Shown: positions 26,950-36,184 of the stretch, one piece after another
Layout of the letters: each line of letters opens with the position of its first letter
Position numbering within the stretch: position 1 is the stretch's first letter
DNA from: a virus
Reading direction: 5' to 3' (one strand)
Length of the DNA stretch: 64,000 nucleotides
IMG/VR virus record: IMGVR_UViG_3300025840_003125
Position numbers and translations under genes: made by a program
The notes under the pieces: model-generated
What the model saw: only the letters and a program-made list of their open reading frames with translations
Databases searched by the model: none
What the model was told of the DNA's origin: nothing

Positions 26950-27355
26950 TAAAGTAAAATCTATATTCTATAGTCACAAAAAGTGGTTTCCTCATGTACG
27001 TACAGACTACATGAAGCGTATGATCGCTAATAAAAAACTAATTTTAGAAGACGGCATACTTATAACATTTCATCATTGTAAAAGAAAACAAAAGATAGGT
27101 GATGTACAATTAACAGTAGGCGATACTGTATTACACCAGATTGCGTCAGATACGCCTGGCTCTGGTAATGCTCAATCAATTCTCAATAACTTCTTTGAAT
27201 ACTGCCCAAAAGACGTATTTTTATCAGTAAGAGCTGACAACTTGACAGCCAACAAGTTTTATGTTAAAATGAATATGAAATTAATCGGGACAACAAGTTG
27301 GGCAAAAGGCACAATCCCTGGTAACGTATATGTCAAACGCAAAAGAAGTAATTAA
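26921..27355 (+). CDS. GNAT-family acetyltransferase-like protein
   Basis: LHQIA..PGSG.A and LSVRADNLTANKFYVK motifs. Confidence 0.7.
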   Translation: MIFAVPSDFDKVKSIFYSHKKWFPHVRTDYMKRMIANKKLILEDGILITFHHCKRKQKIGDVQLTVGDTVLHQIASDTPGSGNAQSILNNFFEYCPKDVFLSVRADNLTANKFYVKMNMKLIGTTSWAKGTIPGNVYVKRKRSN

Positions 27356-28409
27356 AGACTGGAAAGAAAACAAAGGATTCCCATACTATCCTGAAGATAG
27401 AAAATGGCGTGATGATGAGTTTAATAAACTTACGTCATTTAATAGAGATACCTTATTAGATACAAAGAATAAAATCATAGGTCAATCAACACATGGTTTA
27501 ACACTTGCATGGTCGTATATGCACCACGCATGGTCAATCAAATGTGGTAAGATGAAGACACCTATGGAGATATGGGAAGATGAAGAACATTTAGAAAAAG
27601 GTATTAACAAGATACTTACAGGTACTTTCTTCACAAAACGAGAAGCACACAAAATTACAGATTCAGATATGAGAGCTATGTTAAGAAGATATAGTGGTAC
27701 TCAAATGGTTTCTAATTTCAGACCTACAGCAGCCGCAACTTTATATGATATATTTGTAGAAAAAGATAGTCCACTAGAGGGTACAGAAGCAGGTACAGTT
27801 TGGGATCCTAGTATGGGTTATGGTGGTCGTTTAATGGGTGCAATTGCAGCTGGGGTAAATTACATAGGCACAGACCCTTGTGTTCCTACATACGCAGGTT
27901 TAGAAAAGATAAGAGATGATTATGGACACTCTCACAAAAAATATACATTATTAAAACAAGGATCAGAAACGTTTGTACCTGATATGAATAGTTTAGATTT
28001 TGTATTTACATCACCACCTTATTTAGGACATGAACAATATGGTGATGAAGAAGAACAATCATTTAATAAATTCCCACAACAAGATCAATGGCGTGATGGT
28101 TTCTTATTGCAAACTATTAAGAACGCATACACAGGTTTAAAACCAGGTAAATATGCAGGTTTCAATGTTGCAAATGTAAAATCATATAAGACCTTTGAAG
28201 AAGATACCTACGATTGTATGGTTGAGGCAGGTTTTGAAGATATACAAGTTTGGTGGTTATCTTTATCAACTCAACAAGGTACGAAGATACAATCTACACT
28301 AGAAGGCACAGAATCAGAAAAGAAACAATCACAGAATTATATAGGACGATTCGCAAGACCAGACATTCCAGGTAGAAAATACGAGCCAATCTTCATAGGA
28401 CGTAAGTAA
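27330..28409 (+). CDS. Amino-type (m4C/m6A) DNA methyltransferase-like protein
   Basis: DPSMGYGGR SAM motif, YIGTDP, catalytic FTSPPY. Confidence 0.8.
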   Translation: MSNAKEVIKDWKENKGFPYYPEDRKWRDDEFNKLTSFNRDTLLDTKNKIIGQSTHGLTLAWSYMHHAWSIKCGKMKTPMEIWEDEEHLEKGINKILTGTFFTKREAHKITDSDMRAMLRRYSGTQMVSNFRPTAAATLYDIFVEKDSPLEGTEAGTVWDPSMGYGGRLMGAIAAGVNYIGTDPCVPTYAGLEKIRDDYGHSHKKYTLLKQGSETFVPDMNSLDFVFTSPPYLGHEQYGDEEEQSFNKFPQQDQWRDGFLLQTIKNAYTGLKPGKYAGFNVANVKSYKTFEEDTYDCMVEAGFEDIQVWWLSLSTQQGTKIQSTLEGTESEKKQSQNYIGRFARPDIPGRKYEPIFIGRK

Positions 28410-31991: not shown

Positions 31992-32321
31992 ATGACAAAT
32001 TTTAAAGATAATAGTGGTTTAGAAGAATACAAACCAAAAATGTCACAAGAAGAACGTGATGAAAAAATGAAAAAGTTTTTAGCAAAGGGTGGAAAAATTG
32101 AAAAATTAAAACCAGGATACCCTATTAGTGTAGGTAGTTTAGATAAAAGTAAAAAACCAAGATACACAAAAGAAGATGTTTCTAAAGGACTTGCTGTTGG
32201 TAAAACAGCTAGACCTAATTATGATACATATAAAAAAGGATCATACCACGACTTTGATGTTGGTGGTGATAACCCACCAGTATGGGAAAAACAACCAAAA
32301 AATGAGATGGGAGGTAAATAG
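31992..32321 (+). CDS. Hypothetical protein
   Basis: AAGGA RBS; FLAKGGKIEKL motif seen in small phage proteins. Confidence 0.65.
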   Translation: MTNFKDNSGLEEYKPKMSQEERDEKMKKFLAKGGKIEKLKPGYPISVGSLDKSKKPRYTKEDVSKGLAVGKTARPNYDTYKKGSYHDFDVGGDNPPVWEKQPKNEMGGK

Positions 32322-32324
32322 ATA

Positions 32325-32567
32325 ATGGCCATTACAGTAGAAGTAAGAGGTGGCAATTTAGAGAAGGCTATGCGTGTTCTTAAAAAGAAAGTACAAAAGG
32401 CAGGGATTGTTAAAGATTTAAGATCAAAACAATATTTTTCTAAACCATCAGAAATAAAACGTGAAAAAGCAAAAGAACGTTCTAAAACAATCAGAAAAGC
32501 TCAAAAAGCAAATGATGAGATGTTAGGTTACAAGTACGTAAAAGGAGTTAAAGTTAAGAAAATTTAA
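32325..32567 (+). CDS. rpsU: Ribosomal protein bS21
   Basis: VEVRGGNLEKAMRVLKKK...YFSKPSEIKRE. Confidence 0.92.
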   Translation: MAITVEVRGGNLEKAMRVLKKKVQKAGIVKDLRSKQYFSKPSEIKREKAKERSKTIRKAQKANDEMLGYKYVKGVKVKKI

Positions 32568-32748: not shown

Positions 32749-32807
32749 GACAATGCCTTATAGGGTTGTCAGAAAATTAACTTTGCTTAACAATAGGAGG
32801 TTACATG
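32749..32807 (+). promoter_or_regulatory. ROSE-like RNA thermometer in hsp20 leader
   Basis: TAACTTT(G)CT pairs with AGGAGGTTA leaving a bulged G opposite the SD; upstream hairpin GACAATGCC/GGGTTGTC. Confidence 0.65.
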
Positions 32808-33260
32808 ACCAATAAAGCACTATCAATTTTCAATCAATTAAGACCACTAACTGTAGGATTTGACGATACGTTCAGACATTTTGAATCAATGTTTGACCAT
32901 CAATTAGATCATATATCAACTACAGCTTTTCCACACTATAATATAGTTAAGATGGATAAGAATAAGTACGATATTCAAATCGCACTTGCTGGTTATAACA
33001 AAAAAGATATAGACATAAGCCTTGAGGAAGGTGTACTATCTGTTGAGTCTAAAAAAGTAGATGACAAGAAAACAGAAAAGGTAGACTCTGGAGGTGAAAT
33101 CTTACATAAAGGTATCGCTAAAAGATACTTTAAGAAGTCTTTTACAATCGCTGATGACGTTAAGGTTACAGGCGCTGAATTAAAGGACGGACTATTAAGA
33201 GTGTCTTTAGAAAGAGTTGTTCCAGAACATAAAAAACCTAGAACTATCTCAATCAAATAA
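32805..33260 (+). CDS. hsp20: Small heat shock protein (IbpA-like Hsp20)
   Basis: FPHYNI, IALAGY, LHKGIAKR.F, AELKDGLL, PEHKKPRTISI. Confidence 0.95.
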   Translation: MTNKALSIFNQLRPLTVGFDDTFRHFESMFDHQLDHISTTAFPHYNIVKMDKNKYDIQIALAGYNKKDIDISLEEGVLSVESKKVDDKKTEKVDSGGEILHKGIAKRYFKKSFTIADDVKVTGAELKDGLLRVSLERVVPEHKKPRTISIK

Positions 33261-33267
33261 AAAACCA

Positions 33268-33305
33268 ATACGTGCTATGTTTTAAACGCATAGCACGTAT
33301 AAATA
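33268..33305 (+). promoter_or_regulatory. 12-bp inverted repeat overlapping a late promoter
   Basis: ATACGTGCTATG/CATAGCACGTAT; TATAAATA at 33298-33305. Confidence 0.75.
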
Positions 33306-33311
33306 CTTAAT

Positions 33312-33363
33312 ATCGTTCAACTCAAATGAGTCGGAAGTAGGCACGTGCCGAAGGAACGCACCT
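33312..33363 (+). ncRNA. Glutamine riboswitch (glnA motif, glutamine-I class)
   Basis: ATCGTTC-A-ACTC(AAAT)GAGT-CGGAAGTA-GGC(ACGT)GCC-GAAG-GAACGC: P1, P2, E-loop, P3 three-way junction as in the glnA motif. Confidence 0.85.
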
Positions 33364-33386
33364 AACTAAAAAAAAAAGGAGGGTGT

Positions 33387-33542
33387 ATGAATTTCAAGTG
33401 GGATCTAACAAAGTTTATTAAAGAGGCAAGAGCAAAAAAATCTGCAACTGCTATTTTAAGAAAAAGATCAAAAGATTCAATTGCTAGACCAAAAGCAACT
33501 AAAAATATCACATCAAAAGATTCTCGTTTACAAGGTATATAG
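33387..33542 (+). CDS. Small basic peptide (51 aa) downstream of the glutamine riboswitch
   Basis: AGGAGG RBS; MNFKWDLTKFIKEARAKKSATAILRKRSKDSIARPKATKNITSKDSRLQGI; not in ORF track. Confidence 0.75.
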   Translation: MNFKWDLTKFIKEARAKKSATAILRKRSKDSIARPKATKNITSKDSRLQGI

Positions 33543-33546
33543 GATA

Positions 33547-33575
33547 TTGACAAATTGACGTGAATAGTATATAAT
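33547..33575 (+). promoter_or_regulatory. Sigma70 promoter for peroxiredoxin
   Basis: TTGACA-N17-TATAAT. Confidence 0.8.
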
Positions 33576-33600
33576 GTAATTATTATAAGGAGAAAATATT

Positions 33601-34125
33601 ATGAAAAAAGGTGATAGAGTACCAGAAGTAAATTTTAGAGTAAGATCGCTAGGCGAATGGACAGATACAAATACGAATACGTATTTTAAAGATAAGAGAG
33701 TTATACTGTTTTCATTACCAGGCGCTTTTACTCCTACATGTTCAACTCAACAATTACCAGGATACGAAAAATTATATAGTGTGTTTAAACAACACAATAT
33801 TGATGACATATATTGTATGTCAGTAAATGATTCGTTTGTTATGAATGCCTGGGCACAAAATCAAAAACTAGAAAACGTTAAAGTAATACCTGATGGTAAT
33901 GGTGACTTTACAGACGCAATGGATATGCTTGTAGAGAAAACTGTTATAGGTTTTGGTATGAGATCATGGAGATATGCTATGATTGTAAACAATGGTGTAA
34001 TAGAAGAAATGTTTGTAGAACCTGGTAAAGGTAACAATACATCAGGAGACCCTTATGAGGAATCTACTCCTGAAAAAGTTTTAAAATATCTACAAGCAAG
34101 TAGGCTTGACTCAAACGCAATTTAG
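33601..34125 (+). CDS. Peroxiredoxin (Prx5/Ahp1 type)
   Basis: LPGAFTPTCS, SVNDSFVM.AW, PDGNG.F, RSWRY motifs. Confidence 0.93.
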   Translation: MKKGDRVPEVNFRVRSLGEWTDTNTNTYFKDKRVILFSLPGAFTPTCSTQQLPGYEKLYSVFKQHNIDDIYCMSVNDSFVMNAWAQNQKLENVKVIPDGNGDFTDAMDMLVEKTVIGFGMRSWRYAMIVNNGVIEEMFVEPGKGNNTSGDPYEESTPEKVLKYLQASRLDSNAI

Positions 34126-34134
34126 TGATATAAT
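34106..34134 (+). promoter_or_regulatory. Sigma70 promoter (probably leaderless mRNA)
   Basis: TTGACT-N17-TATAAT; ATG 6 nt downstream. Confidence 0.75.
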
Positions 34135-34140
34135 AATATT

Positions 34141-34404
34141 ATGAAATACAATGAGGATAAAATCTTAAAAGAGATTAAAGAGTACATTGAGTCCACATAC
34201 GGACAACATTACTCGTCTGGTAAAGATGGTATCCAAACTTTAGATTTATTAAAGTCTATTGGAATTAAAAGTGATTTTTGTCAGGCAAATGCAATTAAGT
34301 ATTTGTCAAGGTATGGCAGAAAAAGTGGTTATAATCGTAAAGACTTGCTTAAAGCATTACATTATGTTATACTATTATTAAATAATGATAAGGATAAGAA
34401 ATGA
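34141..34404 (+). CDS. DUF3310-like protein
   Basis: TYGQHY, FCQANAIKYLSRYG.K, DLLKALHY. Confidence 0.75.
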   Translation: MKYNEDKILKEIKEYIESTYGQHYSSGKDGIQTLDLLKSIGIKSDFCQANAIKYLSRYGRKSGYNRKDLLKALHYVILLLNNDKDKK

Positions 34405-36028: not shown

Positions 36029-36184
36029 ATGGCAAGAAGAACATTTTTTAGAACTTTGATAGTGAAGTTAAGAATGTGGTATGCTGATATAAGAGGTCAT
36101 CACGGTAAGAGATGGGATTATGAACCAGGCGATTACTATATGGGTTCTCATAAAGGTCATAAGAAACACGAAAGAAAACACTAA
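36029..36184 (+). CDS. Small basic His-rich hypothetical protein (51 aa)
   Basis: GAGGA RBS; MARRTFFRTLIVKLRMWYADIRGHHGKRW...HKGHKKHERKH; not in ORF track. Confidence 0.55.
   Translation: MARRTFFRTLIVKLRMWYADIRGHHGKRWDYEPGDYYMGSHKGHKKHERKH

Follow-up and report, generated by a model that had tools for sequence, protein, structure and literature searches.

A glutamine-I riboswitch behind a late promoter in a T4-like phage precedes a conserved 51-aa basic protein that may act on host glutamine synthetase

An RNA identified by covariance model and predicted fold as a glutamine-I riboswitch was found between a T4-type late promoter and the start codon of a conserved 51-aa basic protein in IMG/VR virus record IMGVR_UViG_3300025840_003125. 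The stretch of DNA analysed (64,000 nucleotides, the window) belongs to a T4-like phage genome of 165.7 kb in which gp33 was detected, and its features are listed in Table 1. The whole reading, in which a late transcript would be translated when glutamine is high to give a basic peptide that damps host glutamine synthetase (GS), is held at slightly below even likelihood. Given the glutamine-ON step, it is an evenly balanced question whether the peptide binds and damps host GS as a stand-in for a small protein that SAR11 bacteria encode beside glnA.

Table 1. Positions of the features in the window, with the basis of each assignment.
Feature	Position	Strand	Basis
13-bp inverted repeat after hsp20	33268..33300	+	fold z = -6.2; overlaps first late-promoter bases
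T4-type late promoter TATAAATA	33298..33305	+	strand and intergenic bias, gp33, kept in siblings
Glutamine-I (glnA-motif) riboswitch aptamer	33312..33362	+	Rfam RF01739, 64.1 bits, E 7e-12
Expression platform	33358..33386	+	33358-63 pairs with 33381-86, extended by 33366-67/33377-78; folds, covariation
Conserved 51-aa basic protein	33387..33542	+	viral homologues, coding conservation, phage-only family

The source phage likely has a SAR11 host. Among cultured phages its polymerase best matched that of Pelagibacter phage Mosig (59%), and the only cultured carriers of the peptide were four Pelagibacter phages, which bears out an earlier note on this DNA that had called the virus alphaproteobacterial and makes it a SAR11-type T4-like phage. 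Neither a GS gene nor a tmRNA was found in the 165.7-kb genome. The window encodes a phage ribosomal protein S21 (32325-32567), preceded by a 109-aa ORF (31992-32321) with a weak match to the RNA polymerase-binding domain of SutA (E 7e-4, below the cut-off). Another 51-aa basic ORF (36029-36184), which is conserved but belongs to no known family, lies directly before tRNA-Thr, and a 51-aa ORF occupies the equivalent position in relatives. The ORF at 27330-28409 resembles a DNA methyltransferase, with the motifs DPSMGYGG and FTSPPY recognised by eye. Near-exact copies of window positions 32800-34200 were present in sixteen 2017 metatranscriptomes labelled freshwater; the relatives are marine. 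The metatranscriptome contigs covered the whole region evenly, with records of up to 16-21 kb there, and DNA carry-over is possible.

The glutamine riboswitch that the earlier note had proposed was recovered by Infernal with the Rfam glnA model, at 64.1 bits against a cmscan gathering score of 35. The match was full length (model positions 1-53), and it was the sole copy of RF01739 in the genome. All three proposed helices were present in the alignment and in the fold, with P1 at 33314-18/33354-58, P2 at 33320-23/33328-31 and P3 at 33340-42/33347-49. The junction of P1, P2 and P3 showed both conserved strands, CGGAAGUA and GAAG, and P1 was followed by the characteristic C (C33359).

The late promoter had likewise been correctly recognised. 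Although TATAAATA is not over-represented in the window (10 copies found versus 13.5 expected), 27 of its 29 copies genome-wide share a strand and 17 are intergenic, in a genome of which ORFs of at least 80 aa make up 94.5%. Its end lies 6 nt before the aptamer, and we infer a transcription start at ~33311-33312. Of 73 distinct viral loci, 41 have a TAAATA 5-8 nt upstream of the aptamer, and no sigma-70-like site was found directly upstream of the aptamer. Genome-wide use of TATAAATA, gp33 and the 5-8 nt spacing are together the marks of a T4-type late unit. Siblings whose peptide is 94-98% identical carry the same hairpin and TATAAATA, followed by eight bases and the ATG, without aptamer and without Shine-Dalgarno sequence (SD); the promoter therefore serves the 51-aa ORF, and aptamer and SD together make up a module that sits between the promoter and the start codon. 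A perfect sigma-70 promoter (TTGACA-17-TATAAT) is present at 33547-33575, five bases past the peptide stop codon and before the peroxiredoxin gene, and its TTGACA is conserved in all aligned relatives.

The arms of the upstream inverted repeat vary at three positions, fully compensated in relatives, and in viral loci L041, L034 and L134 a canonical UUCG terminator stands in place of the hsp20-side repeat. The repeat probably forms a hairpin in the RNA, one that would terminate or protect the hsp20 message. A U-tract is absent here, and the terminator role is one that we infer. An NtrC-like 17-bp box over the promoter was considered and set aside: some relatives have a stronger version, but in the window it was weak (rank 666 genome-wide), and the covariation of the flanking repeat is that of an RNA hairpin.

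The platform helix covers the SD (AGGAGG, 33377-82) and the spacer. At its three variable positions 157 of 171 pairs were Watson-Crick (shuffle maximum 149), with p = 0.05 over distinct combinations in viruses and p = 0.005 with bacteria added, and it is through this covarying anti-SD helix that the platform is tied to the downstream gene. The base after P1 was C in 73/73 viral loci; it pairs with the G adjoining the SD and starts the anti-SD strand. The pairing of GCACCT with GGGTGT that the earlier note described does lie over the SD, but it does not form an either/or choice with P1, since the two share only G33358 and can coexist. The base open to competition between the aptamer and the SD helix is instead C33359, the linchpin base, which is the first base after P1. 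In the gifB leader, capture of the linchpin C in a long-range pair melts the RBS helix, and the switch is ON with glutamine when tested in vivo (Klahn et al. 2018, PMC6212724). Because the same linchpin-C layout has been shown there to switch on with glutamine, translational ON control is, by analogy with gifB, likely here. Folding energies did not discriminate: the cost of opening the SD fell by 2.0 kcal/mol at this locus and by a median of 1.6 kcal/mol over the viral loci, but by 0 in the known-ON cyanobacterial controls.

The aptamer was present before the 51-aa gene in 22 of 89 distinct loci and absent in 67, and among the four cultured carriers Mosig alone has it. Glutamine gating of the peptide, as previously proposed, is likely at this locus, which has both aptamer and SD platform, but would not apply generally. 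Since most carriers of the peptide do without the riboswitch, gating is an add-on that is not essential to peptide function. A tree built from the flanking genes calls for three or more changes of aptamer state, while in the peptide tree the leaderless loci cluster together (support 89/83, not starred); the contrast between the trees fits exchange of the cassette by recombination. These repeated changes, the siblings that lack an aptamer, and a model in which P1 and the SD helix stack and coexist would suit a switch that turns translation OFF, or an aptamer that is a nearly neutral passenger of the cassette. Either is very unlikely, considering that the linchpin C opens the anti-SD strand at every viral locus, that compensation is kept across phages and cyanobacteria, and that the same layout is ON in vivo.

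Five or more unrelated families of small basic proteins are encoded behind the aptamer and this same platform in viral contigs. The short platform precedes IF7-like or DUF4278 peptides in cyanobacteria, and the leader before amt and glnA in marine heterotrophs is long and different. Tandem glutamine aptamers were seen before 33-aa or NPxYP-ending basic peptides in ten viral contigs (L003, L004, L024, L027, L031, L052, L060, L084, L088 and L113). Three bacterial aptamers (L296, L306 and L318) have a short helix of the CATCT/SD type and stand before a very long ORF that by eye resembles glutamate synthase; unlike the long amt and glnA leaders, this helix suggests ON control of a glutamine-consuming enzyme.

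The encoded protein has a pI of 11.2, 15 K/R versus 4 D/E and 1.57 N atoms per residue. Homologues were found on 332-371 viral stretches, and a protein set of the family had 186 members; the CDS was exactly 51 aa long in 79 of 81 cases, and pN was 0.19 versus a pS of 0.64, by which measures the ORF is a real gene under purifying selection. The earlier note was thus right that a basic ORF is present, though not that it goes uncalled, as public gene callers give a hypothetical protein. The cultured homologues, all annotated as hypothetical, are HTVC023P gp47, HTVC103P gp49 and HTVC104P gp51 in podoviruses and Mosig_00116 in a myovirus. R25, R27, R34 and R47 are invariant in an 88-row alignment, and the C-terminal tail holds invariant residues; structure prediction gave a helix over residues 3-29 followed by a flexible, conserved tail. 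One viral contig (L146) carries two diverged copies of the gene, at 218-385 and 959-1129.

No match to the protein was found in Pfam, PHROG, NCBIfam or PDB, and a profile search of 1.8 billion proteins returned nothing beyond members, fragments and fusions of the family itself. Matches to SpoIISB and phrog_639 (E 0.03-0.06) were set aside. The family occurred in 0 of 201 Pelagibacteraceae genomes and was not found in 187 genomes of another order, which we take to be probably HIMB59. Homology to the cyanobacterial GS inactivating factors was not found: HHalign gave a probability of 0.1% for homology to IF7-like peptides, with 82 of 100 shuffles scoring equally well, and profile comparison and Pfam gave no homology to DUF4278 or IF17. 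The arginine spacing of IF7 (R14/R27/R34 in some homologues) was also rejected, as it is not conserved in the query and profile comparison did not support it. Complex prediction with the peptide alignment and a pair of GlnA chains from HTCC7211 scored 0.03 and was given no weight for or against binding.

The charge and nitrogen content of the protein, and the genes for rpS21, tRNA-Thr and RegA near it in the source phage, would also suit a basic nucleic-acid- or ribosome-binding protein, used in translation, packaging or as a nitrogen-rich store and made only when nitrogen is ample. This is quite unlikely, given that the protein matched no ArfA, ribosomal or DNA-binding family and that a generic basic polymer would explain its strict length and invariant tail residues less well than a defined binding site does.

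The link to GS arises because the 51-aa gene swaps genomic slots with a second family, A3 (phrog_32989), which adjoins glnA in hosts. A3 is a basic family of 54-70 aa present in phages and hosts and is not homologous to the 51-aa protein (HHalign probability 0.3%). In slot 1, hsp20-riboswitch-X-prx, X is either A3 or the 51-aa gene (L036 versus L032). In slot 2 the same gene pair lies downstream in HTVC019P and HTVC104P, with neighbours 81-83% identical. Slot 3 lies between phrog_3704 and phrog_20984 (28 and 26 loci with A3), and the 51-aa gene follows phrog_3704 at 26 loci. The two were never found together in the source genome, six cultured genomes and nine partial contigs, a small and partly incomplete set. 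Many myoviruses have A3 under the same riboswitch and platform, and the A3 member HTVC027P gp53 is a late gene. In HTVC008M, where no riboswitch was found in the genome, an unannotated A3-family frame (L419:1929-2084, E 4e-11) is flanked by the genes for the DNA end-protector and the tail-tube initiator.

Of 151 Pelagibacteraceae genomes, most of them incomplete, 108 contained A3, all but one of these in single copy. In 60 of the 93 genomes having both genes it was convergent with glnA at a distance of at most 3 kb (within 60 bp in 42 of the 60); in the remaining 33 the two were on different contigs (27) or distant (6). In clade Ia, A3 also lies behind the suf operon, in the same orientation. 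In IMCC9063 the A3 gene (WP_013695514.1) lies beneath the same riboswitch and platform, and at the place of this riboswitch L520, L522 and L525 have an A3 leader with two short hairpins. The loops of these match bases further downstream, in the manner of tandem pseudoknots, and Rfam gave no match to the leader. The member in HTCC7211 is WP_008545258.1, which corresponds by synteny to SAR11_0746, a gene transcribed at a low level. The HTCC7211 locus (L512:4042-4209) holds a 56-aa basic hypothetical gene tail-to-tail with glnA, as do L510-L514, L523, L524 and many SAR11 genomes. Upstream of this 56-aa gene, which is a candidate host GS regulator, lies a conserved NtrC-like 17-bp box, TGCATATCnGATATGCA, a candidate NtrX site. 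The predicted fold of A3 was of low confidence (pLDDT 62), and a resemblance to ArfA was dropped as neither Pfam nor PDB supported it.

The simplest joint reading, by association, suggests that A3 is a SAR11 GS regulator and the 51-aa protein its phage-made analogue. The idea of a GS inhibitor thereby gains indirect support through its glnA-linked sister family. Because the 51-aa protein is homologous to none of IF7-like peptides, DUF4278 or A3, the link consists of two steps of guilt by association. The glnA adjacency of A3 is shared by descent, and recombination hot spots that take up small late genes of any kind could account for the slots.

The gene context of A3 ties it to nitrogen and glnA but gives neither sign nor partner. 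The peptide of a glutamine-ON switch could thus have another nitrogen target, such as GOGAT, an Amt transporter or NtrX, or could activate or stabilise GS; a small GS-enhancing protein is described in Methanosarcina. We regard this as unlikely: it is hard to see why a GS activator would be made once glutamine is plentiful, and the tested target of the platform, IF17, is an inhibitor.

The earlier note had offered a lysis or assembly timer as well, which would link burst timing to host nitrogen. The late promoter driving the 51-aa gene here agrees with such a role, as does its location in podoviruses among late genes resembling small membrane proteins, with the M15 endolysin of HTVC023P two genes downstream. 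The other neighbours, however, have no lysis annotation, and in myoviruses the gene is found downstream of the capsid gene, upstream of tRNAs, or flanked by hsp20 and peroxiredoxin. The protein has no hydrophobic segment, and A3, with which it alternates in the slots, is widespread among hosts, as a lysis factor would not be. A timer is distinctly unlikely, and support for it is weaker than for a GS inhibitor.

In the mechanism that we favour, damping of host GS, a phage sigma factor would initiate a short late mRNA whose 5' end is the first aptamer base. At low glutamine the bases after P1 (C33359 onward) would pair with the SD and spacer, and the 51-aa ORF would be poorly translated. At high glutamine the aptamer would fold, with G33358 joining P1 and C33359 the linchpin pair; the SD helix would then loosen and the peptide would be made. 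As a phage-only stand-in for the SAR11 protein encoded beside glnA, it might bind host GS electrostatically and damp its activity, which would spare ATP and glutamate during virion assembly. Host glnA goes up during infection.

The aptamer itself is not new: it belongs to a known class already reported in this phage group by Buchholz et al. 2022, who described glutamine riboswitches in phages Melnitz and Mosig and in PMP-MAVGs and assigned them to tmRNA control (PMC9004378). In Mosig the switch stands directly before a homologue with 47% identity to the 51-aa peptide, and the source phage, unlike Melnitz, has no tmRNA. In Melnitz (L527:1501-1670, record 46398 onward) the aptamer and the two-piece tmRNA overlap at the 3' end of the latter, and downstream of the aptamer come the anti-SD helix and an unannotated 32-aa basic ORF, in place of which the record annotates an ORF on the opposite strand. 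The published tmRNA-control reading of the phage riboswitch is thereby called into question.

Compared with the type-1 glutamine riboswitch of Synechocystis gifB (IF17; PMC6212724), the present switch has the same aptamer class, a linchpin C that begins the RBS-pairing strand and a small basic target. It differs in being viral, in its T4 late promoter, in an aptamer at the inferred 5' end, in a target unrelated in sequence to IF7, IF17 or DUF4278 and in being optional among close relatives. The peptide resembles IF7/IF7A (gifA) and IF17 (gifB) in size, charge, expected expression at high nitrogen and conserved arginines, the last a weak criterion; cyanobacterial inactivating factors work through arginines (PMC6316151). 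Unlike them, it shows no detectable homology, occurs in alphaproteobacterial phages and is only a putative GS binder. Its sister family A3 shares with Nostoc gifA the position tail-to-tail with glnA (PMC11288750). The peptide and the Pelagibacter glnA-adjacent protein are alike in basic character, in their three phage slots, and in riboswitch and platform, but are not homologous, and the 51-aa family has no host copies in the 201 genomes.

In the literature searched we found no description of phage-encoded GS inactivating factors, nor of the 51-aa family, the plug-in layout or the tie to a glnA-adjacent SAR11 gene. Tentatively, and somewhat against the balance, podo-, sipho- and myoviruses of SAR11 may carry as a late gene either a captured putative GS inactivator of the SAR11_0746 family or the unrelated 51-aa analogue, to which some myoviruses would add a plug-in glutamine riboswitch. 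SAR11 is without PII, GlnD and NtrBC (PMC3870248), and GlnE was found in 0 of 61 Pelagibacteraceae genomes. In such hosts the phage cassette points to the SAR11_0746 family as a candidate GS shut-off protein, and to a second candidate in the phage-only 51-aa peptide that seemingly fills the same place. If this is true, very abundant marine viruses would brake host ammonium assimilation late in infection, some of them only at high glutamine.
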